Below are positions 27,693-64,000 of a stretch of 64,000 bases of DNA, piece by piece. Source of the stretch: a virus; the IMG/VR virus record IMGVR_UViG_3300042402_002841, positions 1 through 64,000 of that record. One strand, written 5' to 3'. The notes beneath the pieces were generated by a model that saw nothing but the letters and a program-made list of their open reading frames with translations, was not told the DNA's origin and did not search any database. Each line of letters begins with the position of its first letter. The first letter of the stretch is position 1. Made by a program: the position numbers and the translations under genes.

Positions 27693-28355
27693 TTAGTTTC
27701 TGGCTCTACGGGAAGCATTCGCTGCACTTCGTGTATTTGCAACAAACTGATTGCCTGCCCGACTTCCCGTGATTTTCTTACGATTCGTCGCTGCCCTCTG
27801 CGCTGGTGTAAGACGACTCCAAGCAGAAGAGGGAAGATAGCGACGAGTGCCACCTTTACGAATCGCTGGTTTACCATCTGAAGTTCTCCACTTCTCTCTT
27901 GTCCACTTCTTTAGTGAACGCTGTGTTTTGCGAACACCGCCTCTGTAGCCACCGCCCGCTTTGCGATACTCCAATGCTACCAACTGTGCTTTGCGAGCAG
28001 ACCACTGACCTGGCTTACCACCCTTACTGCCAGCCATAATTCTATTCTTAATGCGCTCACGCAACTCTGGCTTTGTGTACTTTAGTGACTTGATATCAAA
28101 TGACGGGGCCTCATTAATGAACGACTTCGTGGACACATTGACCCATTCAAGAGTCTTGCCTCTGACTTCTCTTTCTTGTTTTGGTGGTTCTTCCCAATAA
28201 CCACGAGAGAGAACAACATCAACTTCAACATAAAGTTTGTCGTTTGAATTTCCCTTAATAATGTAGCCAATTCGTGTTTTTTTGCCATTTTCTTCTTCGT
28301 CATGGGTGTAGAAGAGTTTGTCACTACCACGAACTGCTATTAGTTCTTTTCTCAT
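27693..28355 (-). CDS. DUF5872-like basic protein
   Basis: YTKPELRERIK...GGKPGQWSARKAQL...SLKKWTREKW pattern. Confidence 0.65.
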   Translation of the reverse strand: MRKELIAVRGSDKLFYTHDEEENGKKTRIGYIIKGNSNDKLYVEVDVVLSRGYWEEPPKQEREVRGKTLEWVNVSTKSFINEAPSFDIKSLKYTKPELRERIKNRIMAGSKGGKPGQWSARKAQLVALEYRKAGGGYRGGVRKTQRSLKKWTREKWRTSDGKPAIRKGGTRRYLPSSAWSRLTPAQRAATNRKKITGSRAGNQFVANTRSAANASRRARN

Positions 28356-31300
28356 ACTACTGCTTCAATTTCTTCTTCTGGTAAAACATTACCACCGTTC
28401 CATGTATCAATAATTTCTCCTTCTCTTATTGGAACAACCCGTATTCCTACTCTTGCAAGCCTTCCACTAATTGACTCAAAATCTTCTTCTGAAATCACAT
28501 TGCTCTGTTCCCAGTCCCAGTCATTTTGTTCACCTACATTGACTACCACATAGTCAACATCACCAAGGCTAACGCCTCCGTGTATCTGTGCTTCTGCATA
28601 CAGTGTTGCTCCTGGCTCAGCAGATGCATCAACGCTAGGAACACCCATAGGAGACGGAATCAATCCTGTTGAGAGACTGTCATGTGTTGTGTATGTTGAG
28701 CGTGAATGTGTATCTCTCTTGAGAACAAACTGAATTTCACCATACTGCTGTATGTCTTTAAGTCTTCTTTCATCAAGAAACCCGCCTTCGCTCAGATAGC
28801 CATAAACGGGGCGCATCTCTGGTGCAGTGCTTGGGTGATAACCAAAGTGTGCAACATCTGTTTGCATTCTTCCTGATGGATGAAGAGTGCCACGAGAAGA
28901 CCTTGTTTCAAATTGTGTTTTAAATCTCCCGTCTTCTATTAACTTGTCAAGAAGTTCAATCGGGAAGGCAATTGCTATATCTGATTTGTCAAGCGCTCTT
29001 TCTGAATTCTTAAGTCTACCTTCAGAACTCCAGATTTCTGGTCTTGTAAGTATTTGGTAATCATAAACGCGTCTGTCTCTAAGGTGTTGAATTATTCCTT
29101 CAGTAACAATATCTACATCATCAGGGCTAAGACCAGCAGAAATAAATTCACTATTCATAGCGAATTGAAGTTCATCATATGTATTCCTCTCTCCTTGACC
29201 CATTACCTGATTAGCCAATTCATAAAATTTTTTATTTGCTTCACGAATTTCATCTGTCAACGGAATATTTAACCTAGCCCGTCTGTCTGCTTCGTCTAGT
29301 AGGTCTTTATTTTCTTCTCTAAACGCTGATGCTTCTTTCATTTTTTCAGCACGAGAATTTACAATCCTGTCGTACTCTACCTGTGTCTTCGGTGGCATTG
29401 TTCCTGGGCGCAGGATAGACAATGGGCGACCAGTGGCTTTGGCTTCTTCGGGGCTATCCGTCGGCTGAAGTTGTCTAGATGAAGAAGCAAGACCACCAGT
29501 AATTGATGCTCTCACGATATCGTTTGTTGCTATGAATTCTCTTTGAGCATTGGTTGAATCGTTGTAGGATACATCGGAGTTTGGTTTTGATGTGTTTCGC
29601 TTCTCAATGAGAGATACTAATTCAGCAACAACATCGTCATCTTCATAAATGATGCCGCTGGAAATACTTTCAAGTATGTACCAATTATCTGGGTCCTGCT
29701 CCATGAACTCTTCACGAGTGGGGGTAAATTCACCTTTGATTCTGCTTGCTTCAAGATTTTGGTACCAAGAAAGTTTAACTCTATTTAATTTTTCTTTAGA
29801 TATGTCGTTTTCTTGTGCCCATCTATCCATAAGAGAAAACATAAAGAGCATATTCGCCCATTCGCCGTGTCTGTCAAACCCTCTACCAGTCCCAACATGG
29901 CCCCAAACATCATGAGCGTCTAGGAACTCGTCAACTCCCGAAAACTGACTTACTTGATTGAGGTTTTGTAATGCGTTTAGCCACATAAATATGTATGTGC
30001 TATTTCCGTCACTTCTAGTTACACTGGCTGGCTTATAACCATCGCTGGGAGAATTATCTTTTGCTATTTTATTAAGCAAATTGAGCGACCATGCAGAGAA
30101 CGAGTCTGAGTCTCTGACTGTTTGAGAAAATCTAACATCATACTGTTGTTGTTCTGACCTATTTCTCCAGTATTCAGATAAACCAGACTTTTTAATTTTT
30201 TCTGTTAACTTCTTATATACCTCACGGATTTGTTCTAACTGTTCACCACTTGGTCTAGACACAGATGACCAATCGGTATCAGAGTCTCCCTCTTTCACTA
30301 AAAGTGGATGTGGTTCTGCATAGGCGTATGGAATACCATCTTCTCCGACTGCTACACGAATAGAATTAAGCAAGCGTTCTCTATCGTTGGATAGCGCAGG
30401 GAGTAAATCAACTTCTTGAAAGTCAATTCCCATCTTGGAAAGAGTTCCGATTATGTCACTAGGAAGTATTGACTCAAGAATGCTTCTTTCGTTATCTGTA
30501 AGTTCCAGTTCTTTAACGATTGATTCTGTGTCAACACTGATTGGATTTATTCTGTCAGTTCTGGAAGCCAGACCTGTTCTAGAAGCCAGACCATTGCGTT
30601 GAACTATGTCGGAAACTTGATTCTGAACATTGCCGACGACACGGGACTGCTGTGGTGTCAATCTCGTAGAAGCAAGACCGCCACGACGGCGCTCCTTGTC
30701 CTGTTCAATAACAATGTCTACCCATCCAGCCCATGTGTCGCTGGCAGGATTGGTTCTTTTATCATTGTTGTCGGCAATCAAGGAGGCGATAGGTGTGTGT
30801 TTACCAACAAGGTGTGTCTCGCCAATAGAGTTCTCTTCCATAGCGTCTTCGCCTATTTTTACCCTAAACAAGTGAATACCAGTAAACGGAGATTTGGCAA
30901 GATTGTCTCCCCATTGTTCTGAGTCCTCTTCTGCGTATCTTCCTCCGTATGAACTGAACAACTCTTGGGACATGGAGGCTCTATATGTACTGGTGTACTG
31001 ATAGTCGTCAGCAATCAACTGGTCGGCTATCTTGTCCAGCCTAGAAAGAATTTTGTTTTCAGAGTCTATTTGATTATTAATCATGCTGATTTTGTATGCG
31101 TCGGCAGTTGCTGTCGGGACATCACCGTCACGGCGAGAGACTCCGAATAGGAGTCTTGCTCTTCCTCCTCTCCACGGGTTTTGGGGGTCGCTTCTACCTA
31201 TCGCTTCAAAGTCAATAACACCATCTCGTTCAGCCTGTAGTTTCATTTCTTCTAAAATAGATAGGTCTCTTCTTGCGTCGTTACGCTTGCCTACTATAAA

Positions 31301-34300
31301 TCTTGCTGTCTCTTCATTTACCCGACGAGTATTACCAGCGGCTACTGCTCCTAACTGTCCTCGTGAACGAGCGGGGTCTAGTTGCCCACCAACCAAGTTA
31401 CTTGCGCCCCAGTGGAGAACATATATGTAACCTTCGTCATCTTTATATATGGCGTCACGCTCATTTGCGGTCATTGACTTAATCAGTGCGTGTCTTCTGC
31501 GAAGTTCGTCTGCTAATTCTTCGTCAGCGAGAAGTTCATCAATTGAGAAACTGTTATTGTTTTGCTCTCTTTTTTCAAGGAAATCAAGTTTTTGTTTCAG
31601 AGTGTCTAGTTCTCTCTCTGCTTCTTCAATCTGTGATTTTCTTGTAAAGCCAGCAGAGTTAATATCATTTATAAGTTTCTGCTTTAATTGCTCAAATGTT
31701 TGACCTTCTTCAAGGCTTGCTTCAAGTTCTTCTCTTGTGTATGTGGTTGGCGGGTGGTTGCCATTCATATCTATGCGTATGTTCCACTTTTGACCTTCCC
31801 AGTTACCTGTCTCCTCAAATTCAGCCCCTGCTGAACGGAGTCTGTTGTTAAGGTCTTCAAGCGCATCAATTTCTTCCTGCTTACTAGCAATAGAGGCACG
31901 CAATTTTGTTTTCGCTCTTTCTGGAATATCTGAGTCGCTTCTTCGCATTGGGGCACTTGTTGACGCAAGACCTGGCATTGAACGCTCATCCATTGAACGA
32001 CGAACTGCTTGGTTGGCTAGTTCTTCTGTTGGGTAGTCACCGAGATAGTCACGACCACGGTAAGCGCCCCATGACGGCTTGCCACCAACCGTGTAGCGAC
32101 GGACATGGTGCTCGTCACCGCTCTTCATCAGGTTGCGAAGGTTTTGTATCGCTGTTCTGCGAGCAAACGCAGTACCCGCATCAACATCTCTGTTCAGGTG
32201 CTCGTCTACTATTTGTGTGAATGCCTTGTAGACACCAACTAATTCCATGTGGTTCATCTTGACTGGTAGTTGCTTTGACCGCTCAAGGAAGTCGTCTATC
32301 CACGGCAAATCAATTGTCTGACCGTAAACATCATCTCTGATTGGGTTAACGAGCAGGTAATCCCTACTCTCGTTAACCAACTTCATGAAATCGTCTCTAA
32401 TTTCTAGGGGGATATCTATGTTTCTATCAAAACTAGAGGCACTCACAAGACCAGTGCGAATACCTTCTGTTGTTGTTCTGTATGGTTCTGACGGGTTTGG
32501 CATTTCACCGAACTCTTTTGCGCCCATCTCTTTGCGCTTAGCGTCAATCTTCTTAATTAAGCGTTGATTGCGAACCCGTGATGCTTCTGCGAGCACAGCA
32601 AAACGCGGACCCAATACTGGGTCGTCAGCAAACGACTCCGCAAGCCAAGATGCGTGCCCGAATGCTATTGGGTATTCACCCCTTGAGAGTTCCTCAACAT
32701 CAATCCAGTTGAATTGGCTGGCGTCGTCGCCTGCCCGTACAACACTTGATTGTTCGTCACTTATGTCAAAACGAATACCCGCAACACGACCACCCTCTAC
32801 GAAGCGAGGGTCCCAGTCTCTAGCGTCTATCTGTCCGAGTATTCTTCTGTCGGTTGCGTCTGTTGGTGAGATATTTACTTCTTCAAGCATCTCTCGTTCC
32901 GCTGTGTCGTAGAGGTCTTCGTTTTCGTCTTGTAGACCGCCAGGTAATGATAGTGCGCCACGGAATGGTCCTCTTTTGCGCTCAATAGTGAGGATTTCTT
33001 TCTTTCCGTCATTGCGTGTGCGTACAACAACTACATCGCCAGCCATAACCTTGTCGGTTTTTGACAAAGACCACTCGTTTGTTGACCATTCAATGTCGTC
33101 ATTATCCATACTTTCATCATTAAATGCTTCCAATGAGACCTCGTGACGCTTTGCTCTATCTTCTATCCGTGAAGACGAAGCAAGACCACCAATTCTTGTC
33201 GGAATGTCAAACTTGTCTATTGCGTCATTGTCTGAACGAAGTTGGCGTGTGATTGATGAATATCTGTGTGTCTCAAAAGCAATATCGTCAATTGCTCTAG
33301 TCTTTTCGCCATATGTAGTGGCTTGCTCAAGGTTTTGACGGGCTTGTTTCACGCTGTTTAGCGACTCCGTCATATTGGCTGTTAGTACGGCGTTGCGTTT
33401 GTTCTTTCTCACCAGAGCGTCACTACCATCAAAACTTGAACCCAATGTTGGGTGGATAACCCGTGATTGTTCCAATTCAATAACTTCTAGACCGTTTTTG
33501 GTCTTGACGCTCTTGACGGTGAATTCACCCGCAGTCAATGCCTCAATCGGCATATCTACTATTCTTCCGTCTCTGTCTTTGGCTGGCTTGGTCACGGGTG
33601 CGTTTGCTACAGCAACACCTTCACGCAGTTTAAGTACGACATTTTTCTTGGTAGATGACAGACCTGATGAAATAGCGTCTGGTAAAGAAACTAAATCATC
33701 GGTTTTTGAGTATTTTACAATGTCGTCGTAGTTAGGACTAAATGAGGTTAACGGCATTGAGATTACAGAACCAATTTGTGGTTCAAATAAACCAGAACCC
33801 GTGTCAACATTTCTCACCGAACGATACAGTGGTGCGTCAGAGGAGTATCCGCCCTCTGCGATTTCCTTCATTGCGGAAATGGTGAACATAGTAGAGCGTT
33901 GTACTTCTTCTTTTGATTGTTCGTTTGCGCTGTTTACTGAACCCGAAAGCAGGTATTGGTTCGTATCCGACCCGTAAGAGTTGTCCCTATCTTCTCTGTC
34001 AATGCCATCAATGCCCATTATTTGACTTGAAATAAAACGCATTCTCCAGTTTTCTACCCCATCAACCCATTGTTCGTAAACCTTATCCATAGCCAAAGGT
34101 TTTTCGTTCATTGAGAATGTGTAGTCGCCAATTGTTGCTGTGGTTAGTCCGTCTCGTACATACACTGAATCTTTTTGCGAGTGAGCCCGCTGAGCCTTCG
34201 GGAATGAGTCTTTATGAGAAGAAACTCTCTTATCAACACTAGATATCGCTATTTGTTTCTTTGCGCTACTTGAAGCGAGTCCTTGTCTTGCTTCCCACGG

Positions 34301-37300
34301 CTTTTGGTACGGAGAAATATCAGGACTTGATTTCAACCCGAAAACATATGCCATTGCGTGTTCAAGTTCTGGTGTTAGATACTGCGCTCTTATGTTTTGA
34401 TTTGGTGTTGTAAAAAGTACATTTAGTTCCGCAAATTGTTCCTGACGGTTGAAGTTTCCGTACTGAACACGAAGCAAAGGCAATAGGTCGCTTGTTAAAA
34501 ACGGATAAAGAGTATTTATTTCTTCAAGAAGGTCATCACCGAAACTTGGTCTCCACCTATCACGACCACTGCTTCTATCTATAAGCGTAGCGGTGTAGGT
34601 ATTCATCATATCTTCAAAGTCTTGGGCTGCCTTATCACCTAGTGTGCGTTGAACTTGTTTTTTTGCGTTAGCAATGATGTAACCAGAACTTTTTGCTGAT
34701 GAGTAAGGAATAAAAGATGTTTTATCAAAGGAATCTTTAATAAACTTTCCAATATTCATTGCTTCTGGGTTACCAGGAAATAGATACGACATTCTGTCGG
34801 CTCTACTTCCAAGAACTCCACTTTTCTTTGCGTAAGAAAGTCCGACCACCCGACTCCAGAAAGAGTGAGCCCATTCGTGATGAATAATTCCTTCTGGTGA
34901 CAAATCAACATTGAGCAAATACGGAGTGCTACCTGGCTCTGGTACACCATAAGCAATGCGATTGTCAGCAGTTTCAAACATTGAAAGATATGGACTTACT
35001 TCTCCTGATTGTGAAGGACTCCTAAACGGGCTTGAATCAAAGTTTAAAAATATTCCGAAAGGACCCATTGACCACCCACCAGTTTCACCACTCCTAACAA
35101 GGGGTGACAAAACGGTAGGACCTAGTAATTTTTCTAACTCCCGTGCTTGCTCAATAGCATCAGGGTCTGTGCCAATGAAACCCGAAGAACCAAATGTTCT
35201 GATTTGCCAAGCGAATAATGGAGATGCGTCTAACGCTCTTTTCAAATACTCTCTTACCCTGTCAACACCTTTTGGTGAAAAATCAGGAAACAACATACCA
35301 TTAGGAGAACCATATCCAAGAAATTGTTCTTCAAAAATATCTTTCAATACAGCAAGTTGAGTAGGCGTGAATTGCGAAGCGTCTTGACCGTAAAGAAGGT
35401 TCATCAAGAAAAGATTGAAGGCATCAGTCTCGCTTCTTACGGAAAGAATGTCTGAAATCTCATCATTTGTTGCGTCTTTCAGATAATCACGACCACCTAT
35501 TGGGCTCAACTCTGATTCTGCGCTAAACAAGTTCGGTATTATTCTGTCGCCCGAACTGTCTCGTGGAATAGAGAATGACGCCAAGCCTGCCCGTGACTCG
35601 TCTATGCCACCTGCGATATCACGCTCATACGAGTACGGCTTACCGATAATGTCAAAAATGTCCTCCCGTAAGGCAGGGCTAACTTTGTCTCTGAAACTTG
35701 CGTCGTTAATAAGTATGCCCGAAACGCCCTCTGCGAACGCTTCTGCTGGCATTGTTTGACCGTATTGAGTCATTGCGTGTGGATAGCCGTTCCATCTTTG
35801 TTGTTTGCCGTCTGCGACTCTTTTGCCAAACTTTTTTGCGCCGATTAGGCGACTTGTGAACTTATCTTTTCCGACATCTACGCCTAAGTCGCCGAGAACT
35901 TTCCATACACCCGTGAGACCTGCGTCGTGTTCCCAAGTGTTTGAAAACCAGAATGTAGCAAGCCTTCTTACTTCTGGGTCTGGGTGATTGGTTATTGCGA
36001 GTCTATTTATGTAGTGCCCCCATTCGTGAGCAAGTAACGCATCTTCACGAGTGGACATCATAAACTGTTCGGTGTTTTTTAGTTTAGGAGAGTTAGGTTC
36101 TACGGCGTTTGTAATTCTGCCTGCGACAAGTTCTTGACGAACATCTTGGTTCACAATGATTGCTGGGAAGCCTTCTATCATTGACACTGCGTTAGTGTTG
36201 TCGCCGTCGTCCCATTCGGCACCACGCTTGGTAATCAGTAGCGGTGGAAATCCGTGACGCTCTACTGCTTCTCTAAATAGTCGGTTGTTTGCGAGAGCAC
36301 CCGTGAGTGCTTGGCGCATTTCTTCCACAATTACTGGAGAAAAGTCAAGCGCCTCAACGCCGTCTTTTATGACACTCTTTATTGCGTCTGGTCTAACGCT
36401 CTTGTCGTCATCATCAAATGCCATAAGTGCTTGGTGTTCTTCTAACGCAAGCATTGCTTCCGCTATGTTTGACGGCACAATAAGGCTCGCCATTTCTGCT
36501 GGCTCAAGCCCTCTCATACCACTACCCGTGGTGCTCTGGCGATTTCCACTAGACGACGCTAGACCGCCACTGCGAACGCCTAAGAATACGCTCTCCACCA
36601 TTTCAGCGCCTGCTGTATTCAGTAGTTCTCTAGTCTTTTTGTTTGGAGAGAAGTAGGCGGCGATTGACTCTCCTACAAACTCAACGGGTGAGGTCGTGCC
36701 ATAACCTGTCTTGACAAACGGTATGTCATCAGTTGGTGGGTCTATCTTGTCATCACTAATAGAAGCGTCTGCGAAGTATCTGTAAAAGTCTCGCAGACCA
36801 CCTGTACGAAGCGACTCCTCTGTTTGCCATTGTGGCGTAAGGTAAGACCACGAGTCGCCATACAGAAGGCTTGCTATCTGTCTTGTCTCTGCGTTGGGGT
36901 GATAGTCCGATGTGAGCCTATGTAGGTAGTGTCCCCATTCGTGCGTTACCGTATCCTCTGCGCTTTCACCTGTGACCCACCGCTTGACTCCCCTGATAGG
37001 CAGTGCGTTCATAGTGTTCATAAACCTATTGCCACCTACTGCGCCAATCAACTTTGACAGTTTCTTGTTTGTAGATTTTGAGTCAATAAGTATTGAGTCG
37101 GTCATAAAGATACCTGAGAAACTATTGTCACCTGTAACCATTGCTATTGGTGGCGCACCAAACCTGTCCCACGAAGCCCGTAAGGCAGGGCGGTCATCTA
37201 GCATTTTCTCAACTATCTGACGCAGTTCTTCAACATCATCAGCGTCAAACGATACGGCATCATAGAGGTCATCAATTCGCAGTTGTCCTCTACTGTGTTG

Positions 37301-37690
37301 TAGGCGTTGCTCTGTGAATGCGATTGGAGTATCAGGCACGACACGCTCTGCTACTTCTCTATTACTAAGACCTACTAGTTGTGACTTGCCATTAGAAAAG
37401 ATACCCGTGGCACCTCCTGCGCTTGCGAGTCCTCCTCTAATTGTTGAGGCAATGTTAGATAATACTGCTGGTCTCTCAAACGGAGTTGAGTCTTGTACGA
37501 GACCGTCACCGTCGCCGTCTTCAGCGTTCGGGTCATAAACCGCTGCGCCTCTTGCTAGTGAACCAATGTTTGCGCCTAGTGCTTTGTACTGTACGCCTTT
37601 GTCGTTATCTCTTGACGAACGACGACGCATACGACTTGATTCATCAGGATTGATTTCATACGAGAAAGGCATTGACTTATTGTAGAACAC
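28352..37690 (-). CDS. 3112-aa polyvalent protein: three zincins, ADP-ribosyltransferase, Nudix, HDxxGH domain, DUF3626-like
   Basis: HEWGH twice and HEWAH, each with a downstream ExFxE; LYRS..LTSFS..E (ART); GGLQDENEDLYDTAEREMLEEV (Nudix box); RFKTQFET..RPVYG..QYGE; ten GLAS linkers. Confidence 0.85.
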   Translation of the reverse strand: MFYNKSMPFSYEINPDESSRMRRRSSRDNDKGVQYKALGANIGSLARGAAVYDPNAEDGDGDGLVQDSTPFERPAVLSNIASTIRGGLASAGGATGIFSNGKSQLVGLSNREVAERVVPDTPIAFTEQRLQHSRGQLRIDDLYDAVSFDADDVEELRQIVEKMLDDRPALRASWDRFGAPPIAMVTGDNSFSGIFMTDSILIDSKSTNKKLSKLIGAVGGNRFMNTMNALPIRGVKRWVTGESAEDTVTHEWGHYLHRLTSDYHPNAETRQIASLLYGDSWSYLTPQWQTEESLRTGGLRDFYRYFADASISDDKIDPPTDDIPFVKTGYGTTSPVEFVGESIAAYFSPNKKTRELLNTAGAEMVESVFLGVRSGGLASSSGNRQSTTGSGMRGLEPAEMASLIVPSNIAEAMLALEEHQALMAFDDDDKSVRPDAIKSVIKDGVEALDFSPVIVEEMRQALTGALANNRLFREAVERHGFPPLLITKRGAEWDDGDNTNAVSMIEGFPAIIVNQDVRQELVAGRITNAVEPNSPKLKNTEQFMMSTREDALLAHEWGHYINRLAITNHPDPEVRRLATFWFSNTWEHDAGLTGVWKVLGDLGVDVGKDKFTSRLIGAKKFGKRVADGKQQRWNGYPHAMTQYGQTMPAEAFAEGVSGILINDASFRDKVSPALREDIFDIIGKPYSYERDIAGGIDESRAGLASFSIPRDSSGDRIIPNLFSAESELSPIGGRDYLKDATNDEISDILSVRSETDAFNLFLMNLLYGQDASQFTPTQLAVLKDIFEEQFLGYGSPNGMLFPDFSPKGVDRVREYLKRALDASPLFAWQIRTFGSSGFIGTDPDAIEQARELEKLLGPTVLSPLVRSGETGGWSMGPFGIFLNFDSSPFRSPSQSGEVSPYLSMFETADNRIAYGVPEPGSTPYLLNVDLSPEGIIHHEWAHSFWSRVVGLSYAKKSGVLGSRADRMSYLFPGNPEAMNIGKFIKDSFDKTSFIPYSSAKSSGYIIANAKKQVQRTLGDKAAQDFEDMMNTYTATLIDRSSGRDRWRPSFGDDLLEEINTLYPFLTSDLLPLLRVQYGNFNRQEQFAELNVLFTTPNQNIRAQYLTPELEHAMAYVFGLKSSPDISPYQKPWEARQGLASSSAKKQIAISSVDKRVSSHKDSFPKAQRAHSQKDSVYVRDGLTTATIGDYTFSMNEKPLAMDKVYEQWVDGVENWRMRFISSQIMGIDGIDREDRDNSYGSDTNQYLLSGSVNSANEQSKEEVQRSTMFTISAMKEIAEGGYSSDAPLYRSVRNVDTGSGLFEPQIGSVISMPLTSFSPNYDDIVKYSKTDDLVSLPDAISSGLSSTKKNVVLKLREGVAVANAPVTKPAKDRDGRIVDMPIEALTAGEFTVKSVKTKNGLEVIELEQSRVIHPTLGSSFDGSDALVRKNKRNAVLTANMTESLNSVKQARQNLEQATTYGEKTRAIDDIAFETHRYSSITRQLRSDNDAIDKFDIPTRIGGLASSSRIEDRAKRHEVSLEAFNDESMDNDDIEWSTNEWSLSKTDKVMAGDVVVVRTRNDGKKEILTIERKRGPFRGALSLPGGLQDENEDLYDTAEREMLEEVNISPTDATDRRILGQIDARDWDPRFVEGGRVAGIRFDISDEQSSVVRAGDDASQFNWIDVEELSRGEYPIAFGHASWLAESFADDPVLGPRFAVLAEASRVRNQRLIKKIDAKRKEMGAKEFGEMPNPSEPYRTTTEGIRTGLVSASSFDRNIDIPLEIRDDFMKLVNESRDYLLVNPIRDDVYGQTIDLPWIDDFLERSKQLPVKMNHMELVGVYKAFTQIVDEHLNRDVDAGTAFARRTAIQNLRNLMKSGDEHHVRRYTVGGKPSWGAYRGRDYLGDYPTEELANQAVRRSMDERSMPGLASTSAPMRRSDSDIPERAKTKLRASIASKQEEIDALEDLNNRLRSAGAEFEETGNWEGQKWNIRIDMNGNHPPTTYTREELEASLEEGQTFEQLKQKLINDINSAGFTRKSQIEEAERELDTLKQKLDFLEKREQNNNSFSIDELLADEELADELRRRHALIKSMTANERDAIYKDDEGYIYVLHWGASNLVGGQLDPARSRGQLGAVAAGNTRRVNEETARFIVGKRNDARRDLSILEEMKLQAERDGVIDFEAIGRSDPQNPWRGGRARLLFGVSRRDGDVPTATADAYKISMINNQIDSENKILSRLDKIADQLIADDYQYTSTYRASMSQELFSSYGGRYAEEDSEQWGDNLAKSPFTGIHLFRVKIGEDAMEENSIGETHLVGKHTPIASLIADNNDKRTNPASDTWAGWVDIVIEQDKERRRGGLASTRLTPQQSRVVGNVQNQVSDIVQRNGLASRTGLASRTDRINPISVDTESIVKELELTDNERSILESILPSDIIGTLSKMGIDFQEVDLLPALSNDRERLLNSIRVAVGEDGIPYAYAEPHPLLVKEGDSDTDWSSVSRPSGEQLEQIREVYKKLTEKIKKSGLSEYWRNRSEQQQYDVRFSQTVRDSDSFSAWSLNLLNKIAKDNSPSDGYKPASVTRSDGNSTYIFMWLNALQNLNQVSQFSGVDEFLDAHDVWGHVGTGRGFDRHGEWANMLFMFSLMDRWAQENDISKEKLNRVKLSWYQNLEASRIKGEFTPTREEFMEQDPDNWYILESISSGIIYEDDDVVAELVSLIEKRNTSKPNSDVSYNDSTNAQREFIATNDIVRASITGGLASSSRQLQPTDSPEEAKATGRPLSILRPGTMPPKTQVEYDRIVNSRAEKMKEASAFREENKDLLDEADRRARLNIPLTDEIREANKKFYELANQVMGQGERNTYDELQFAMNSEFISAGLSPDDVDIVTEGIIQHLRDRRVYDYQILTRPEIWSSEGRLKNSERALDKSDIAIAFPIELLDKLIEDGRFKTQFETRSSRGTLHPSGRMQTDVAHFGYHPSTAPEMRPVYGYLSEGGFLDERRLKDIQQYGEIQFVLKRDTHSRSTYTTHDSLSTGLIPSPMGVPSVDASAEPGATLYAEAQIHGGVSLGDVDYVVVNVGEQNDWDWEQSNVISEEDFESISGRLARVGIRVVPIREGEIIDTWNGGNVLPEEEIEAVV

Positions 37691-39701: not shown

Positions 39702-39761
39702 AATACGCTGTTTATGTGTATTCAAAAAAAAAAATCTTACAATAGATAAGGAAAATAAAAA

Positions 39762-40154: not shown

Positions 40155-40160
40155 AAACTG

Positions 40161-51744: not shown

Positions 51745-51749
51745 TTTAA

Positions 51750-54700
51750 CTACTTCTTAACTCCAGTTCCCCATGTTTGGACCAGATAGTCTCTTCTTGC
51801 TATAAGAGTATCTGCCAAATTCTTTGCTTCCGCACTGTCTGTTACGACATCGTTAACCATTTTTCTAATATCTGCGTCAGAAAGTGCTCCAATTGATGCT
51901 ACTTGTCTAGCGATTTCTTGCGCTGGAATATCGCTAAAGTACATGGCACCCAAAGAATTAATGCCTGGAGCACGCAATGACTCCATTTCTCCAACTATTG
52001 GTCCAAACGCTGAGCCCTTTGAATCACCTCTTGCTCGGAAAAGACCAGCACCACCAGTATCAATGATGTACGCCTCCCCATCTGCGCCCATCTTAATATT
52101 GTCGCCATTGCCAGTACCGTCCCAGTTAGCCAACCATGCGCTTGCTACAAAAGTATCTTGAACAGACTTCTTCCACTTAGGATTTCTAACCTCGGCGCTA
52201 TGATTAACGCTCCTTGAACCATCAAGCCATTCACTAAATACGCCTGGTCCAGATGATTGACCCGAAATGTGTGCAGTTCCTCCGCTATTTTTCGCAGCGC
52301 GGACACCTAGTCTTTCGTAAAGTTTTGACATCAGAACCTCGTTTTCAGCATGAAGTTGTGATTTTTGTTTCTTTACATAGAATTTTTTTCCATTTGGGTC
52401 TTCAAATTCTGCCCCAGGCTGAGAACCGCCTTGAGGCCCTACCTGTTTCCATGACTTGTTGTCAAGACTGCCAGAAGAACCGCCACCTTTGCGACTAGAT
52501 TTTTTCACCTTGGTCTTTTTATCAGTTGCTTTAACACGCTCGCCCTTGCCAACCTTCTTGATATCAGCAAGAATCATTGGCTGATTTACTGCAACCATTG
52601 CGCCTCTGTTGTGCATAACAATTCTTCCATCTCCAAACCCAAAGTCAATTCCATCGTATCCCAGAAATCCAGCATGAACAGTTGCGTCAGCATCGGCCAT
52701 TCTGTTTAAAAATTTCAAAGTCTCAATCGCTTGGTCTTTTTTAGCCGTTTCCTTGGGGCCAACTGTTTTCATCCAACTGAATACGCCTTGGTAAAGTTTG
52801 CCCCATTCCGTATTCCACACATCACTATCTGCTGGAATCATTTTACTAAGCGTCTCTTCAATTTCTTGAGCAAGTTCTTGAGCGTTGAGTTCTTTGTCCC
52901 ATCTTCCGCCGCTTCCAGGCCCAGTTATATATGCATCAACAGCATTGTTTAAGATTCTATGGTGCTCTCTGAAAGAATTTGCTTGAGCGCTTGTTGCTAT
53001 TCTGTCTTTTTTAACCATTCCTATAACGCCGTCAGCCTGTTTTCCGTCTTTACCACCGAAGTATGATTCCCATCCGCCGTCTTGATATGACCAGTATTCT
53101 CCAGCGCCAACAACTGCCATTCCTTGCCCTGGAACATGTCTTTTAGGACTGTTTAGCCAAATATCTGCGTAGGCTTCTTTTTCAAAGCCTCTTTTAATTG
53201 GAATCCATCCTTGTTCAATTAAGTCTGGAATTTCATCTTCTCTAATCCATGTTGGCAGCGCATTGTATGCGTTTCCGTTCCATAAACCCTTAAGTACTTT
53301 TTTGGCTCCCTCGTTTGTTACTACTGCTTCGCCTTTTGCACCCTTTCTCTTGGAAACTTTAAATTTTCCTGACATTCCAGCAAGAATTGAAACTGCTTTA
53401 TCATCAATAACAATAGAACCATCTGGTTTTCTAAATGCGTGAAAATTCTTATTAAGCGTTGAGTTTACTTTTGACTCAATTGCTTCAGCATCTCGTCTTT
53501 TCTTAACATTGAGAAGGAATTGGTTTTTGGCTCTTCTTATTCTTCTCTTTAATGGAGAAGCCTTATCTGATGCCTCTTCAATGTCTTCAACAGCAACACC
53601 TCTACCAGTCTTGCGAAGTCTTCTTCTTTCGGCTCTTTCTGGATTTGGTCGGGTAATTCTTCTTGCAAAGTCGGCAAGTTTAGTATCGGCTTTTTTTCCG
53701 AGTCTTGCTTTTTGTCTTTTTGCTCCGCCAACTTCTTCAAAAATTGTTGAAGGTTCACCAGTTGGCAATGCTTGCTTTACCTCTTCATAATTGCCTTTTT
53801 TGGCTGTTGGTATCTTTTTGCCAAAAGATTTTTGTCTAGTTTCTGGATGCAAGTGCTCAAGCAATGACCAGTCATCACTTTTTTGCATTTGGTCAAATGT
53901 TCTTAAATCATCAAGAGCCTTTTGTTCTCTTTCAAAATCTTTTTTAAGTTTATCTATTTTTTTCTGAATCTTTGGTGCTTCTTCAGGGCTTGCGCTTGAA
54001 AGAGTACCTTCAAGTCTTGATACTTCAAGACGCACATCATCTGAGGCATCTTCAATTGCTAAAGTTAAAGAAGTAAGAGCCTCTCCAGCGATTCTTGAAT
54101 CTTGTGACCATTCTTTTCCATCAGCATCTATTGCCGCAGTTTTCTTTTGTTTAGTGTTTTGCGAAAGAAAAGAAGACCACCAATCACCGTTTCTCTTCTT
54201 GATATCTTCCATCAGGTCTTGATATGCCTGTTTTGTGTTTTTTTCTACAACATCTTTTTGTTCTGGTGTCAAAGATTCCCACAACTGGCCATCTTTGTCA
54301 TCAACTCTGTCACGACCAGGAGTGCCTTTTAATTTTGACTTCTTCTTTGCTTTTGAACTTCTTGAAGCAAGACCGTCTACTTGTCTTTGTGTTCTTGCGG
54401 TTGAAACACGGGAACGCATACCAGACTGACCAGGCTTTTTTGCGCCAGAAGGTCTATTCTGAAGAACATTGACAACATCCGACATGAAATCTTCCATGTT
54501 TTCGTATTCACCATTATCAAAATCGTCAATATGTTCGTTGATTCTATCTTTCTGGTTTTTAGTTAATTTTGTTGACCCATCAGAACCACGGGAATTAACT
54601 AGAGAACGCAAGTCATCTGATGTTGATTTTTTGGACAGGACATCCCTGACCATATCTGTAATTTCTTTATTTGCTTGTGTTCTTGATGCAAGACCAGACC

Positions 54701-55646
54701 TGTTGGCATCAGAAGGGCTAGATGTTACGGTTCTTTGGGCGTTCTGTCCTCTGGTTCTTTTCGCAGCACCTGCACCAGCCTCCCTCAGTACACTGCGAAC
54801 ATCAACACGACCACCAGTAGAGCGGTCATTTACGCCAGGAATAGCGGGTCTTTGGTATGGGGTTCCTTCTTGAACTAGGCCGTCACCGTCTCCGTCCCAT
54901 GCTTTGGGGTCAAAATTACCTGCCCTTCTTGCAAGCCTTGCAGCGCCACCAATTCTTTGGCCAATACCTTTTTGCTCAAGGGATTCTCCAAGGCTCTTCG
55001 TTTCAAGACCGTAGATAACTCCAATGTTTTTTCTTTCATCAGTTTGAATAATTGCGTTCTTTAACTTAATGCCCAATCTTCTTTCTGTTGAGCGACCTAA
55101 GTTGTTGTCAATTCTTTGTCTAAGTGATTTAATTTCCGCTTTTGAAGGCATTGAGTTATACATTGATTTTTCAAAGTTGAATGCGTAATTATTCGCTCTT
55201 GCCTCAAAAAGAAAACTACCTTCTTTGATTTGAGTTCTCATAGTAAGCGCCTTGTAATCAACTGCGCTTGAGTATTGAGTTGTTGTAAAATGACTTATCG
55301 GTGTGTCCATTACTGCTGGAACACGAGCACTATTATCTACTGAAAAAAAACCTTTATACAAATATGACTTTGATGAAAAAATGTCATTAGATGTAGATTC
55401 TTGATAACCAAGGGAATTAATTAAAGATTTTAATGAAATTTCGTTAATATTTTTAAATGGTCCTTGAATAACTCCAGCAGGAATTTGTGATGATTCAAGA
55501 CTTTTTGTATCAACAGAGTTTGCCCACTGTGCCCATTCTCTTCCAGCACCTTCAACTCCGTAGTGCCTAATGGACATACCATCTTTGACAACGATGGCAA
55601 ATTTTTCATTACGCAGAGCGTCAAATAGTATAGATACTTGTTTCAT
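51750..55646 (-). CDS. 1298-aa multidomain protein with C-terminal HipA/PI3K-like kinase domain
   Basis: GSQPG..FYVK..NEVL..LY..LG..WLANWD..DNI..IIDTGG; DGDGDG tag; two GLAS. Confidence 0.75.
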   Translation of the reverse strand: MKQVSILFDALRNEKFAIVVKDGMSIRHYGVEGAGREWAQWANSVDTKSLESSQIPAGVIQGPFKNINEISLKSLINSLGYQESTSNDIFSSKSYLYKGFFSVDNSARVPAVMDTPISHFTTTQYSSAVDYKALTMRTQIKEGSFLFEARANNYAFNFEKSMYNSMPSKAEIKSLRQRIDNNLGRSTERRLGIKLKNAIIQTDERKNIGVIYGLETKSLGESLEQKGIGQRIGGAARLARRAGNFDPKAWDGDGDGLVQEGTPYQRPAIPGVNDRSTGGRVDVRSVLREAGAGAAKRTRGQNAQRTVTSSPSDANRSGLASRTQANKEITDMVRDVLSKKSTSDDLRSLVNSRGSDGSTKLTKNQKDRINEHIDDFDNGEYENMEDFMSDVVNVLQNRPSGAKKPGQSGMRSRVSTARTQRQVDGLASRSSKAKKKSKLKGTPGRDRVDDKDGQLWESLTPEQKDVVEKNTKQAYQDLMEDIKKRNGDWWSSFLSQNTKQKKTAAIDADGKEWSQDSRIAGEALTSLTLAIEDASDDVRLEVSRLEGTLSSASPEEAPKIQKKIDKLKKDFEREQKALDDLRTFDQMQKSDDWSLLEHLHPETRQKSFGKKIPTAKKGNYEEVKQALPTGEPSTIFEEVGGAKRQKARLGKKADTKLADFARRITRPNPERAERRRLRKTGRGVAVEDIEEASDKASPLKRRIRRAKNQFLLNVKKRRDAEAIESKVNSTLNKNFHAFRKPDGSIVIDDKAVSILAGMSGKFKVSKRKGAKGEAVVTNEGAKKVLKGLWNGNAYNALPTWIREDEIPDLIEQGWIPIKRGFEKEAYADIWLNSPKRHVPGQGMAVVGAGEYWSYQDGGWESYFGGKDGKQADGVIGMVKKDRIATSAQANSFREHHRILNNAVDAYITGPGSGGRWDKELNAQELAQEIEETLSKMIPADSDVWNTEWGKLYQGVFSWMKTVGPKETAKKDQAIETLKFLNRMADADATVHAGFLGYDGIDFGFGDGRIVMHNRGAMVAVNQPMILADIKKVGKGERVKATDKKTKVKKSSRKGGGSSGSLDNKSWKQVGPQGGSQPGAEFEDPNGKKFYVKKQKSQLHAENEVLMSKLYERLGVRAAKNSGGTAHISGQSSGPGVFSEWLDGSRSVNHSAEVRNPKWKKSVQDTFVASAWLANWDGTGNGDNIKMGADGEAYIIDTGGAGLFRARGDSKGSAFGPIVGEMESLRAPGINSLGAMYFSDIPAQEIARQVASIGALSDADIRKMVNDVVTDSAEAKNLADTLIARRDYLVQTWGTGVKK

Positions 55647-60496: not shown

Positions 60497-60505
60497 TTTG
60501 AAATC

Positions 60506-63500
60506 CTATAAAAACTTAATGTCTGATGACTTGTAGTGTAATTGTTTTAATTGCTCAATTGGAACATCAAGAAATTCTGAAAGCATTTTAAAGTGCTCCT
60601 CTTTAGGCATAAAAAACTTTGTTTTTTTGCCAGGAAACATATATGTCATCAGTTCTGCAATATATTCACTTTTCTTTGTCATTGCGTATCTGCTAATTTC
60701 TCCAGCCAATTCCTGGTCTTCTGCGCTTAGCGAATAATTAATCAAATCAATTTTTTCAATGCCATTTCTCTCTGCATAAGAAATTGCTTCTTCTAGCCTG
60801 TCAATTTGTTCAGCAGTATCTTGTTCATACTTTTTTCTTGCTTTTCGGTTTTTACCCATAGCCATTGCATGAATAGTGTGACTGAGTTCGTGTCTCAAGA
60901 TGTCATCTGTAGGGATGGGCCAGTCAACGGCTTTTGATACAACCTCTTCTTGGTTCACCACTCTTGGTGGAAAAGCCAAAAATCCATATTCTGGGAAATA
61001 CTCTCCTTCAATAGATTCCCACCTGTAAGGGTCTTGATACATTTGTTCCCTATTAAATCTTCCAGGTGCGGCTCCATTTTTTGTAACAATCATTGGAGGT
61101 ATGTCAAATTCTCCAAGAAGTTCTTCAAAACCTGGAGAATCATTTAATGTTTTGTCCAACTTGGCGTTCAATCTGGATTGAGCCTCCCAGTCAATTTCCA
61201 TAATATTTATTAAATCAAGTATCTCTTGTTCACTCTTTTTGCCTTGAGTAAATGGAGATTCCTTGAGAATACTGAGCAACTCTGAGGTGTTTGTTGGTAT
61301 TGCTCTTGAAATAAGTTCTTGCCTTGTTTTAGGTTTTTCGCGAGGCTTACTATCTACTCTAAATTTTTTTGTAATTTTTTTACCAGAGCGTCTTGCTGCC
61401 GAAGATGACGCAAGACCAGTTCTTCCTGATTCTTCAAACATGTCTTCAAACGGGTCGCTGTATGGAACAGATGGAACACTTGGCGCTTCTGGTGAATAAT
61501 CTTCAAATGGGTCAGAAATAGATGGACTAGAAAATGCGGCAGGTACTGTCTCTTCAGCAAATGGGTCATTGAGTGAACCCCCAGACCTTGACGCTAAAAG
61601 ACCAGTCTGATATTCGGACCACCCTGGCTGATTTGCTAAAGCAGGATTATTGTCAACCGACTGGTTGCCCGAAGAATCACTTACATGTTCAGTCCATACT
61701 TGACCGTTAAAGTACCTAAACTGACCTGGCTTAGATGGGTCTGGACTCCACCCTGCTGAAGCACCAGGTCCAACTGCATCTGGTTTTTCTCTTCCCTCTC
61801 TCCGACGCCTAAGGCGCTCTCTAGCGCTTCCAGCAATTTCAAAAGCCTGTCCTCTTGCCGATTCTGTTAGTTCTGATACTTTTTCTCTAGTTGCTTCCGC
61901 TAGTTCTAAAGAACGCTCCTGAAATGCGGAACCCATTTCAAGTGCTTTTCTTCTGTTTTCTTCTGTCAGTAGTCTGTCTCTGGTTGCTTCTGCTGCTTGA
62001 ATAATTTCATCTGGCAAACCTTCTGATGCAATCCTATTTAATCCATGCTTTATTATTTTGTCCGCAACAGATTGGTCAATCATTCCACGCTCAACCATTA
62101 CCTCTAGTGCTTTTTCTCCCGCATCTCTACCACCTCTTCTTGCGAGTGGGACTATTGCTCCAGCAGGTCCACCAGCGGAAAATCCAATTGCCATTTCTCC
62201 AATTAGTTGAACAACATCTGCTTGTTCTGGGTTGACCCCAACTCTTTCAATAAGTTTTCTTCCAGTCCTACTTCCAAGCATTCTGCCCACCGCAGTGGCG
62301 GTCATGCTTCCACTAGGTGTAAAACTCGCAAGACCACCTCTGTCGTCTTGTTCCTCACCCATGATTTTTGCAGACTGAATTGAAGGAATGGAATACATGG
62401 AGCCAGGTTCGGTGTCTGCGATTGAATCAATTTCAATTTCTACAACAATGTCTTCCTCTATAACCGTTTTTTCAAGCGCTTGCATTGCTGGGGATGCAGA
62501 ATCAATATCGCTATCAGTTACAGAATCAGGAGGGGTAATGCCATGCCTTCTAAATGCACTCAAAACTTCTGCATTTGATTCAAGTTCAAACTCTAAATCT
62601 GGAGCAGAACGAGAAGCCAGATAAGAAATGGGAGGATTATCGGAAACAAAATCAATTGCTTCTATTTCTTCTGCGCTTAATCTTGCTTCTTGAGAAGATT
62701 TTCTTAATGCATTTCTTCCTACTGAAGCACCAAGCCTGTCAGGATATGGCCCATTTTCTACAATCGTAAGAATGTCATGAACTGCTGGTGCAAAACCACG
62801 ACCTACTCTCTGAAAGAGTGATTCATACATTTCAATTTCTTCTTGGATTTGTTCAAGGTCTGCTCGGAATTCACTAATATCATCATATGTGTCTGTAGTG
62901 CTTGTGTTTCCTTGTTGTCTTCTTTCTTCGTATCTTCTTCTTGCTTCTTCTGACTTTATTTTAAACTCATTTGCCCCATTACGAAGATGAGTAATAGCAG
63001 ACATAAGTTTTCTTTTTTCTTCTGGGGTTATGTTTTCCCCTCTTTGTGCCTTTTGTCCAATTTCTTCAAGTTCCTCAAAAGACATACCCATTGTGTCTAC
63101 AAGGTTGTTTAAAAGTTCTTTTTTCTGCGTATCTCTAAGGCGGTGTCCTTTTCTGATGCGCATATTTCTCGCACTTCTAAACATTCCCCACAAGCCACCT
63201 TTGCCATCTTCTCCGTAAAGATGCTCCTCAATGTCTTGGTTGGTAAATCTTTCTTCCTTAATCATTCGTGGAACTTTGCCGTGTCTATCCTTTTCAAATG
63301 GGTCAACAGGACCACGGGGTGTTCTTCCTGTGGGTGCCGAAGGACGACGGGGTGTCTTTATTACTCCTGCGCCTTCGGGAAGCGTCGGCTCAACCAACAC
63401 TCCTGGAGTGATTGGTCTCTTAGGTTTAACTGGCTTAGGTGAATCAATCGGAGCATCTGGTCTTCTCCCAGGAATAATTAAATCACCATCTGGCACTGGT

Positions 63501-64000
63501 GGTGCTCCAGGAACTATTAATGGACCCCAGTGAGGAGATGTTGAGCCAGGAATAATAAGCCCACTTGGTGAGGGCGGTACAGAATCTATTATTTCTATTT
63601 CTTTTTCTGGCAAGAAAGCGTCAAGGACTTCATCAACTTCTGGATTATCTCCTATTAATCCAACTTCTCTGTTTGCAACAAGTTCTGCGTGCGTTTCAAA
63701 AAACGCCAAATTTCTAGCCTGATTAAACGCACGAGGGTTTCTTGTGTCCGCAAGTACACCGAGAGCCTCTTGTTGCTTGACTTGAGAATATTGGCCTGCA
63801 AGAGCATCAAGTCTTCTATCAATTAAATCATTAAAACTTATTCCAAAAACTTGAGCAATGTTTTCATCAGAAGCAGTGTCAATAAATTCTTGCACTACAG
63901 ACATGAGTTCACTGTTAGTTAATGCGTCAAAGTTTTCATCAGGATAAGAAAGTTTGAACCATTCAAATACTGCGTCGTATTGTTTTTTGTGGGTCATTTC
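60506..64000 (-). CDS. large polyvalent protein (N-terminus probably outside window): Pro-rich region, DUF2510-like domain, C-terminal zincin
   Basis: AGWSPDPSKPGQFRYFNGQVWTEH; RHELSH...YA...EYIAE; two GLAS plus GLLAS and YLAS variants. Confidence 0.75.
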   Translation of the reverse strand, partial: EMTHKKQYDAVFEWFKLSYPDENFDALTNSELMSVVQEFIDTASDENIAQVFGISFNDLIDRRLDALAGQYSQVKQQEALGVLADTRNPRAFNQARNLAFFETHAELVANREVGLIGDNPEVDEVLDAFLPEKEIEIIDSVPPSPSGLIIPGSTSPHWGPLIVPGAPPVPDGDLIIPGRRPDAPIDSPKPVKPKRPITPGVLVEPTLPEGAGVIKTPRRPSAPTGRTPRGPVDPFEKDRHGKVPRMIKEERFTNQDIEEHLYGEDGKGGLWGMFRSARNMRIRKGHRLRDTQKKELLNNLVDTMGMSFEELEEIGQKAQRGENITPEEKRKLMSAITHLRNGANEFKIKSEEARRRYEERRQQGNTSTTDTYDDISEFRADLEQIQEEIEMYESLFQRVGRGFAPAVHDILTIVENGPYPDRLGASVGRNALRKSSQEARLSAEEIEAIDFVSDNPPISYLASRSAPDLEFELESNAEVLSAFRRHGITPPDSVTDSDIDSASPAMQALEKTVIEEDIVVEIEIDSIADTEPGSMYSIPSIQSAKIMGEEQDDRGGLASFTPSGSMTATAVGRMLGSRTGRKLIERVGVNPEQADVVQLIGEMAIGFSAGGPAGAIVPLARRGGRDAGEKALEVMVERGMIDQSVADKIIKHGLNRIASEGLPDEIIQAAEATRDRLLTEENRRKALEMGSAFQERSLELAEATREKVSELTESARGQAFEIAGSARERLRRRREGREKPDAVGPGASAGWSPDPSKPGQFRYFNGQVWTEHVSDSSGNQSVDNNPALANQPGWSEYQTGLLASRSGGSLNDPFAEETVPAAFSSPSISDPFEDYSPEAPSVPSVPYSDPFEDMFEESGRTGLASSSAARRSGKKITKKFRVDSKPREKPKTRQELISRAIPTNTSELLSILKESPFTQGKKSEQEILDLINIMEIDWEAQSRLNAKLDKTLNDSPGFEELLGEFDIPPMIVTKNGAAPGRFNREQMYQDPYRWESIEGEYFPEYGFLAFPPRVVNQEEVVSKAVDWPIPTDDILRHELSHTIHAMAMGKNRKARKKYEQDTAEQIDRLEEAISYAERNGIEKIDLINYSLSAEDQELAGEISRYAMTKKSEYIAELMTYMFPGKKTKFFMPKEEHFKMLSEFLDVPIEQLKQLHYKSSDIKFL

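Follow-up and report, generated by a model that had tools for sequence, protein, structure and literature searches.

Recurrent GLAS peptides in the linkers of giant phage proteins are candidate lineage-specific processing sites

We analysed bases 1-64000 (the window, 64,000 bases) of the 132,392-base IMG/VR record IMGVR_UViG_3300042402_002841, which comes from an uncultured phage and has a CheckV completeness of 88, with regard to the tetrapeptide GLAS, which recurs along four very large proteins encoded there. The window holds 16 such copies, all in frame and on the minus strand, in four proteins totalling 6367 amino acids (aa): ten in a 3112-aa protein and two each in open reading frames (ORFs) of 794, 1298 and >1163 aa, the last of which is the C-terminal 1163 aa of a 1744-aa protein whose gene continues to genome position 65740. 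These proteins were compared with those of IMG/VR relatives (455 confirmed by their capsid protein and at least 584 by their S78 protease domain), whose loci sets include near-duplicate contigs so that counts over loci are partly redundant, and with a set of six whole genomes, G000 (this record) and the five additional records fetched, G001-G005. The nearest cultured phages by capsid are Gordonia and Brevibacterium myophages, at 46-48% identity. The main features are listed below; the low end of each 12-nucleotide motif is its codon-1 coordinate minus 11, and confidence in the AlphaFold2 (AF2) models is given as the predicted local distance difference test (pLDDT).

28352..37690, minus strand: 3112-aa polyprotein with ten GLAS copies; module order N-terminal tag, three zincins like that of anthrax lethal factor (LF), an ADP-ribosyltransferase (ART)-like segment (a lead), Nudix, three unknown modules, DUF3626
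37421..37432, minus strand: GLAS, residue 87, after the tag; same column as the site in the G005 ortholog
34283..37417, minus strand: three tandem LF/PPEP-like gluzincin modules, residues 92-374, 381-701 and 729-1136 (hidden Markov model (HMM) envelopes)
36554..36565, minus strand: GLAS, residue 376, joint of zincins 1 and 2; low-pLDDT segment, model residues 1-29
35576..35587, minus strand: GLAS, residue 702, joint of zincins 2 and 3; low-pLDDT segment, model residues 336-350
34271..34282, minus strand: GLAS, residue 1137, joint of zincin 3 and the ART-like segment
33176..33187, minus strand: GLAS, residue 1502, joint of the ART-like and Nudix segments
32645..33034, minus strand: NUDIX, residues 1553-1682 (Pfam 1.6e-12; phrog_1198)
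32441..32452, minus strand: near-cognate GLVS, residue 1747; ranked fourth among the non-GLAS matches to the site matrix, with a score of 11.7
31961..31972, minus strand: GLAS, residue 1907
30563..30679, minus strand: three GLAS, residues 2338, 2367 and 2373, the last two in tandem (GLASRTGLASRT)
29483..29494, minus strand: GLAS, residue 2733, ahead of the DUF3626 segment
28673..28948, minus strand: DUF3626, residues 2915-3006 (Pfam 2e-07, 30.8 bits against a cut-off of 27)
49001..51385, minus strand: 794-aa protein, directly upstream of the capsid gene; order DUF3721 twice, GGLVS, tag, GLAS, zeta-like kinase, GLAS, C-terminal module
50408..50419, minus strand: GLAS, residue 323, ahead of the kinase; in a segment of pLDDT <50, residues 311-345
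49796..50230, minus strand: Zeta_toxin-type P-loop kinase, residues 386-530 (Pfam 1e-09)
49562..49573, minus strand: GLAS, residue 605, after the kinase; in a segment of pLDDT <50, residues 601-610
51750..55646, minus strand: 1298-aa protein; N-domain, tag (residue 251), GLAS 318, GLAS 425, unknown part of about 870 aa
54684-54695 and 54363-54374, minus strand: the two GLAS of the 1298-aa protein, both at the columns of the G005 ortholog
60506..64000, minus strand: window part of the 1744-aa protein
62324-62335 and 61406-61417, minus strand: the two GLAS of the 1744-aa protein

Chance as the source of these copies is excluded by composition and shuffle tests and by the genome-wide count. Composition predicts 0.24 copies in the 6367 aa, no more than 3 turned up in any of 2000 shuffles, and in 200 shuffles of the four proteins no 4-mer whatever exceeded 6. 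A six-frame scan of the window found 20 copies, the remaining four falling in short frames of 21-117 codons, and the neighbouring 669-, 616-, 452-, 231-, 220- and 198-aa window proteins have none. Over the whole record (162 ORFs and 41,253 aa in a crude longest-ORF gene set) there are 29 copies against 1.43 expected, 28 of them in six proteins where 0.43 would be expected; the two carriers beyond the window are a 2089-aa ORF and a tape measure protein. The copies have a recognisable context, R-x-G-L-A-S-[STR]-[ST], with R at -2 in 10 of the 16 and S, T or R at +4 in 13. Their codons vary from one copy to another, which excludes repeats at the DNA level or a recent duplication of linkers as their cause. 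The original prediction, made from the window sequence by a model, had given the same counts and the coordinates of the low ends of the motifs, a GLVS at 32441, the context [RG]xGLAS[SRT], an expectation below one copy in about 6400 aa and conservation at the level of protein, and all of this is borne out. Collagen-like fibre repeats aside, GLAS is the most enriched 4-mer of the genome.

The only 4-mers that exceed the junction motifs of these genomes in enrichment are collagen-like and P-P-F-F repeats. The former belong to a 1224-aa G-A-T-G-P-T repeat protein, presumably a fibre, outside the window (genome 102412-106086, plus strand), and the latter occur in G002 and G003.

The GLAS copies occupy low-confidence, hydrophobic-poor and indel-rich linkers between folded modules. 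Averaged over the 30 residues flanking 28 sites, the hydrophobic fraction is 0.202 against a background of 0.277 (z = -5.3, on hydropathy and disorder scales entered by hand). In the 3112-aa protein, the zincin HMM envelopes at 92-374, 381-701 and 729-1136 fill the segments between the GLAS copies at 87, 376, 702 and 1137, and in an AF2 model of residues 360-720 both flanking copies lie in the two low-confidence ends. An AF2 model of the 794-aa protein, based on 16 orthologs, has a mean pLDDT of 66.8, rises to about 80-92 across residues 350-600 (the kinase fold) and falls below 50 at 311-345 and 601-610, which contain its two sites, so that GLAS does bracket the zeta-like kinase as had been proposed. 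No copy lies within the Pfam envelopes of NUDIX, DUF3626 or Zeta_toxin. The expectation that inter-GLAS segments would be self-contained domains joined by disordered linkers is thus supported, as the tested copies lie in coil of pLDDT <50 adjoining confident folds, and the contrary outcome, copies inside folded domains, was not seen.

Not every module name that had been suggested for these segments stood up equally well. NUDIX, DUF3626 and Zeta_toxin are Pfam matches within inter-GLAS segments; the kinase scores 38.6 bits with PF06414 against a cut-off of 22.3 and keeps its GxxGxGKS/T in 16 orthologs. The ART segment, however, is a language-model lead only (0.92 to ADPrib_exo_Tox clusters), the labels 'HYE-type ART' and 'HDxxGH' found no Pfam confirmation at E<=1, and sequence searches of the PDB with the ART-like and DUF3626 segments gave nothing significant. 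The predicted zincins do carry HExxH, but as copies of one unit and not as the Pfam domain MPTase-PolyVal (PF18818), which had no match at E<=0.01 in the whole genome. HExxH, Y284, E291 and E295 are invariant in 13 of 13 modules, the Y-x6-E spacing corresponding, we assume, to LF Tyr728/Glu735. Modelled on an alignment of these 13 modules, residues 360-720 gave a predicted template modelling score of 0.76, and VIA-align placed the model near the anthrax LF catalytic domain (Z 8.9, root-mean-square deviation 4.3, 179 aa, 18% identity), PPEP-3 (Z 6.5) and PPEP-2 (Z 6.2). Other searches were weak: Foldseek against the PDB had a best E of 0.42 (none at E<=0.001), a PDB profile search gave E 0.24, and Pfam had no match at E<=1. 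The three HExxH segments are one repeated module with a predicted anthrax-LF/PPEP-like fold. With NUDIX, DUF3626, three LF-like zincins and an ART-like segment in the 3112-aa protein, and Zeta_toxin in the 794-aa protein beside the capsid gene, the content is of the polyvalent type.

The letters GLAS are mostly lost in relatives, where each lineage bears its own recurrent peptide in the same giant ORFs. Among these variants are GFAS, GFSS, GMAS, GLRS, GMRS, GLSSG, RLSSG, PLGSRS, ISGRM, ITGAM, GVSGxM and STRS (nine times in locus L072), and their common core is hydrophobic-x-S/G. Among protease-fused ORFs of 1500 aa or longer, 35 of 36 contain a non-low-complexity 4-mer of this type at least four times. 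Each of the six whole genomes spreads its own variant across several giants: LSSG in G001 (23 copies), LGSR in G002 (22), TGAM in G003 (12), SGRM in G004 (14) and G[FL][AS]S in G005 (26). Judged by these alignments, GLAS is one lineage's variant of a family-wide hydrophobic-x-S/G code. Since unrelated proteins of one genome switch their motif together, the co-variation points to one lineage-specific, trans-acting reader.

What is kept between relatives is the position of the site, while its spelling changes. Fourteen of 26 sites of G000 lie at the exact column of a G[LFM][AS]S site in the G005 orthologs, with one more a column off, although the giants are roughly 33-45% identical by column count and the flanks of the aligned sites are rich in indels. 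The site ahead of the kinase is kept in 13 of 16 aligned rows under seven spellings (GLAS, GMAS, GFAS, GFSS, GLRS, GMRS and GFRS). At the second site of the 794-aa protein, 9 of 15 aligned orthologs end and four continue into a different C-terminal module. Between G000 and G005, modules have been gained or lost at motif sites, and while capsids are 92% and S78 domains 89% identical, cargo giants are only roughly 33-51% identical; by this comparison the cargo evolves very fast.

The motif is not restricted to effector polyproteins, as had been supposed, because both carriers beyond the window are of another kind. Of these, the 2089-aa ORF lies directly after the portal gene and carries nine GLAS. 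Its residues 2-172 are an S78 prohead protease (Peptidase_S78, 3.3e-10; phrog_80, 1.4e-26), present as a single copy in the genome, in which neither ClpP nor MPTase-PolyVal found a match. An S78 domain occurs in every relative examined, and in each of the 84 ORFs found to bear one (367-3984 aa, many of them truncated at a contig end) the match is at the N-terminal end. The family consists of a conserved N-part (about residues 1-500), a variable cargo region and a conserved C-terminal domain of about 130 aa, and the two conserved parts are both present in 18 of 30 distinct relatives of 900-1400 aa. Its own GLAS copies at residues 526 and 1968 bracket the variable middle, and equivalent border sites, in several variants, were found in 8 of 10 relatives, after the N-part (residue about 485-520) and 120-165 aa from the C-terminal end, the latter as GLRS, SLRS, GLSS, GLAS or RLTS. 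The second carrier is a 1517-aa protein with three GLAS, encoded after the tail sheath gene, whose homologues hold the position of the tape measure. Five of the six genomes have their own exact motif within the first 70 aa of this protein and the sixth has a near match (ALASRS for PLGSRS); G000 and G005 have mid-protein copies as well. The tape measures show no cross-variant matches, except between G000 and G005, which share a variant.

On the minus strand the genes run in the order portal, S78 fusion (2089 aa), an acidic scaffold-like protein (484 aa), 1744, 616, 198, 669, 1298 and 794 aa, and capsid, with the 3112-aa gene about 10 kb beyond the capsid. The 1744-aa protein begins outside the window with a zincin-like N-domain, in which HExxH, ExxAE and ..RCPxG[TS]PxANxFT.. 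are conserved in six of six genomes and for which neither Pfam nor PHROG gave a match; two GLAS sites and one LF-like zincin module follow. Further features of this region are as follows.

60878-60892, minus strand: second HExxH of the 1744-aa protein
37439..37585, minus strand: shared tag of about 45 aa in the 3112-aa protein, upstream of its first GLAS
54822-54962: the shared tag in the 1298-aa protein
50570-50710: the shared tag in the 794-aa protein
about 72070-72210 of the genome: the shared tag in the 2089-aa protein
51098..51112, minus strand: GGLVS, residues 92-96 of the 794-aa protein, after its first DUF3721 repeat; candidate extra site
47440..48798, minus strand: HK97-fold major capsid protein (Pfam 6e-44), which has no GLAS

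The tag (..LG....AR...FDPNAxDGDGDGxxQxGTPFERP.., with a calcium-loop-like core, DxDxDG) occurs once in each of the 3112-, 794-, 1298- and 2089-aa proteins, 29-75 residues ahead of the first GLAS. It matches phrog_7924, of unknown function, and falls in a stretch of pLDDT <50. Among the other genomes, G005 and G002 have the tag, whereas G001, G003 and G004 lack it or carry an altered form. We regard it as a candidate signal for capsid targeting or anchoring. GGLVS lies in a disordered, indel-rich stretch of variable length and is kept in most of 16 aligned orthologs whatever their motif variant (G92 invariant, V94 and S95 at least 90%); by this alignment, the G-hydrophobic-x-S lineages may have this site in common.

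The 484-aa protein has a long Asp/Glu run (genome 65758-67212, minus strand, outside the window; L007:7758-9212), and the motif at its C-terminus, ALPDGSYPI...GRAKDK..., is likewise found at the end of the 501-aa protease-scaffold protein of Gordonia phage ChisanaKitsune. Therefore protease and scaffold-like tail, to judge from this shared ending, appear to be split into two separate genes in this clade. In many relatives (L088-L167; G001) the protease domain is followed by P-G-M-P / G-M-P-G repeats, in up to nine copies.

The motif enrichment, the linker position, the positional conservation with changed letters and the co-variation within a genome are established by the sequences, whereas cleavage, the cutter with its scissile bond, packaging and ejection are inferred. 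That GLAS is a site of proteolytic processing by some protease is probable on the pattern of the sequences. The original prediction of a dedicated cleavage or recognition site thus remains the best reading, though GLAS would be only one lineage's variant of it and the carriers extend beyond effectors. In the mechanism that we favour, giant proteins would be assembled from a structural or targeting N-terminal part, often ending in the DxDxDG tag, followed by a string of independent enzyme modules (LF-like zincins, ART-like, Nudix, zeta-like kinase, DUF3626 and unknowns) and, in the protease protein, by the conserved C-terminal domain, with a short, disordered, motif-bearing linker at every joint. 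A phage-encoded protease would recognise the motif and cut the chains into separate proteins. This cutter would be the S78 (HK97-type) serine protease that forms the N-terminal domain of the 2089-aa protein. The chains would enter the procapsid, where they would be cut in the manner of T4 Alt and the internal proteins or the ejection proteins of phiKZ and SPN3US, and the released modules would then be ejected along with the DNA. For the whole statement, a lineage-specific processing site with the S78 protease as its cutter, we would put the probability at roughly 0.4.

The motif at the S78 protein's own borders counts for this protease, as it parallels the self-cleavage of prohead proteases. 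In T4, phiKZ and SPN3US, a single motif marks the places where the prohead protease cuts both itself and ejection proteins (PMC10052503); SPN3US gp245 trims its own C-terminal propeptide and cuts ejection proteins in this way. Several findings, however, weigh against S78 as the cutter. In five of six genomes the tape measure bears the motif within 70 aa of its N-terminus, but it is a tail protein, whose motif a protease confined to the procapsid should not meet. The S78 domain is 72-93% identical across variants, and its blocks around the presumed catalytic His and Ser are invariant, while the motif shifts from GLAS to ISGRM; no co-variation of S78 sequence and motif variant is visible, and a switch in specificity would not show because the domain is so conserved. 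The capsid offers no clear counterpart either. Its presumed junction between delta domain and N-arm (VK-SLGSS in our phage) reads K/R-[ST]-[ILV]-G in 32 of 46 distinct relatives whatever their variant, and eight more have K-[SG]-[LVI] a few residues upstream (40 of 46 in total). As it is largely kept across variants, it does not co-vary with the variable motif and appears not to be a copy of it. Moreover, the mature N-terminus of HK97 (cleaved at K103/S104) aligns by HMMER with our residue ~145-150, about 55 beyond SLGSS at 92. Only RLSSG lineages show their own motif (QLSS) at this junction, so that the capsid junction as a motif copy is suggestive for these lineages alone and is otherwise weakened by the conserved junction and the HK97 alignment. 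A predicted complex of the S78 domain and a GLAS linker of 51 aa scored 0.00, which counts neither for nor against this protease.

The original prediction had implied that an HExxH protein is the cutter. It is one candidate, but the S78 protease, fused to an array of GLAS, is at least as likely. A phage zincin, either the 1744-family N-domain with its HExxH...ExxAE or the LF/PPEP-like modules, would cut N-terminal to the hydrophobic residue (x|L-A-S), possibly after ejection into the new host. Thermolysin-like gluzincins prefer a hydrophobic P1' residue, which the core hydrophobic-small-S/G would suit, and sites in the tape measure would be natural if cutting takes place outside the procapsid. 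The N-domain is conserved, with HExxH and the downstream ExxAE, in the head-module giant of all six genomes, and it is far more divergent than S78 (51% against 89% between G000 and G005), therefore leaving room for a changed specificity. Its HExxH inner residues do vary between variants (MT, RA, LN, SA, AG, FG), but they track the variant poorly: GLRS lineages have FS or LA and GLAS lineages MT or LT, so that co-variation with the motif was rejected for want of a clean mapping. LF/PPEP-like modules occur in four of the six genomes, but G003 and G004 gave no match to this family even at E<=10, and three to five diverged copies per genome resemble cargo rather than one processing enzyme. A tblastn search of 50,697 cultured phage records gave no match for either zincin family, while S78 and capsid do match cultured phages, among which ChisanaKitsune and Gilgamesh have no recurrent motif in their head regions. 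Processing of polyvalent proteins by a zincin, possibly after injection, was proposed by Iyer et al. 2017 (PMC5512222); this is a prediction, and the literature consulted holds no measured precedent. Furthermore, motif copies at the junctions of the S78 protein itself are what one classically expects of a self-processing prohead protease. We consider a zincin cutter less likely than not, but only a little behind the S78 protease.

Alternatively, the motif might remain uncut and act as an element of recognition or modification: a docking site, a place of Ser/Thr modification, or a punctuation for translocation or unfolding during passage through the tail. Disordered linkers with an invariant Ser and S/T-rich flanks would fit this, the genome encodes a kinase and ART-like modules, and co-variation across proteins requires a trans-acting reader but not a protease. 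Uncut giants also have parallels, since P1 DarB (251 kDa) is listed among virion head proteins with no cleavage mentioned in the accessible part of PMC9024508, and N4 virion RNA polymerase is packaged unprocessed (PMC5512222, likewise in part). The motif, however, marks almost every joint between modules as well as the junctions within the protease protein, and orthologs end or swap modules exactly there, which is the anatomy of polyprotein cleavage sites. To our knowledge, all known short-motif codes in phage head proteins are protease codes. We thus regard an uncut motif as improbable. Cutting by a host protease, with variants that follow different hosts, is less likely still, indeed hardly credible. 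There is reportedly a precedent in staphylococcal phage 80alpha, whose capsid and scaffold mimic the site at which host Prp cleaves ribosomal protein L27; the variants differ among phages whose S78 barely differs, and the tape measure is among the carriers. But phages whose capsids are 92% identical can already use different variants (one strict GLAS, the other G[FL][AS]S), housekeeping proteases usually conserve their specificity, and the phage encodes at least two protease types of its own beside the substrates. A further reading, which we find doubtful, would extend to a large clade of uncultured tailed phages, represented by at least 584 IMG/VR contigs. Whatever exits the virion, the tape measure as well as the head cargo giants, would be written in a private, fast-switching code of cut sites for a co-delivered phage protease, possibly acting only after ejection. 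Drift of the code between close relatives would leave the cargo of each phage to be cut by the protease of that phage only, and would so serve as a specificity lock in conflicts among phages or between phage and host.

Returning to the favoured reading, cleavage by the S78 protease, the closest comparison is with phage head maturation. T4 gp21 cuts at L/I-x-E, its substrates including Alt and the internal proteins IPI-III, and herpesvirus assemblin cleaves Ala|Ser. Like T4 gp21, phiKZ gp175 and SPN3US gp245 (PMC10052503), our candidate is a phage-encoded head maturation protease, and by sequence alone a short motif is common to it and several presumed virion proteins; the substrates in those phages include enzymes and ejection proteins delivered with the DNA, to which the cargo here may be likened. 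Unlike those systems, the protease is of the S78 (HK97) type and fused to a cargo array, the motif lacks Glu and is hydrophobic-x-Ser, nearer to the assemblin rule, the sites would lie between up to ten modules per chain instead of after one N-terminal propeptide, the motif differs among close relatives, and the tape measure carries it. 

The giants also resemble the polyvalent proteins, which string together 2-15 unrelated effector domains (zincin, ART, Nudix-like and zeta kinase among them) and are encoded beside virion genes, and for which Iyer et al. 2017 proposed packaging and processing by peptidases (PMC5512222). The accessible part of that paper describes no linker motif and no role for a prohead protease, a term that appears there only among the references, whereas in our phages one can see a junction peptide that recurs and is specific to the lineage; also, our zincins do not match MPTase-PolyVal, the commonest though not an obligatory hub domain. 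The P1 Dar proteins and N4 virion RNA polymerase are comparable in being very large, and are carried in the capsid, and the N-terminal capsid-targeting signal of P1 (PMC9024508) can be compared with the DxDxDG tag; unlike here, neither P1 DarB nor the N4 polymerase is described as cut at repeated sites in what is accessible of PMC9024508 and PMC5512222. ChisanaKitsune, whose protease is 39% identical, has an ordinary 501-aa protease-scaffold protein, and its head region has neither a recurrent motif nor the tag. In Streptomyces phage Gilgamesh, gene 48 (L207:11979-25853) encodes a 4624-aa hypothetical protein between a portal-MuF fusion and an S78-like 'hydrolase' with the capsid gene; no recurrent junction peptide was found in this head-module protein. 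Within the openly searchable literature, supplements aside, we found neither a recurrent junction peptide in phage polyvalent proteins nor a prohead protease fused to cargo. On the sequences, what appears to be new is therefore the fusion of a prohead protease to an array of cargo, the presence of as many as ten sites at the module joints of one chain, the switching of the code between close relatives, and the inclusion of the tape measure.

The polyproteins of RNA viruses (with picornavirus 3C, flavivirus NS3 or alphavirus nsP2) are multi-enzyme chains with an internal protease and a short joint site that co-evolves with it. The chains described here would be alike in having the protease inside the enzyme chain and one short site per joint, but they belong to a double-stranded DNA tailed phage, most of whose functions are encoded by separate genes in the ordinary way, a single code serves several polyproteins, and their likely purpose is the delivery of cargo and not the expression of the genome. 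If the sites are cut, a polyprotein system with many sites and a co-evolving code, a design otherwise typical of RNA viruses, is also within reach of double-stranded DNA phages, and a simple sequence rule would divide thousands of unannotated phage residues into functional units, each open to separate annotation, folding and expression. The processing of polyvalent proteins (whether it occurs, by which enzyme and when) would become directly testable, and the sites in the tape measure would connect the maturation of head and tail in a new way. Finally, module exchange at precisely these sites would account for the fast evolution of the cargo arrays.

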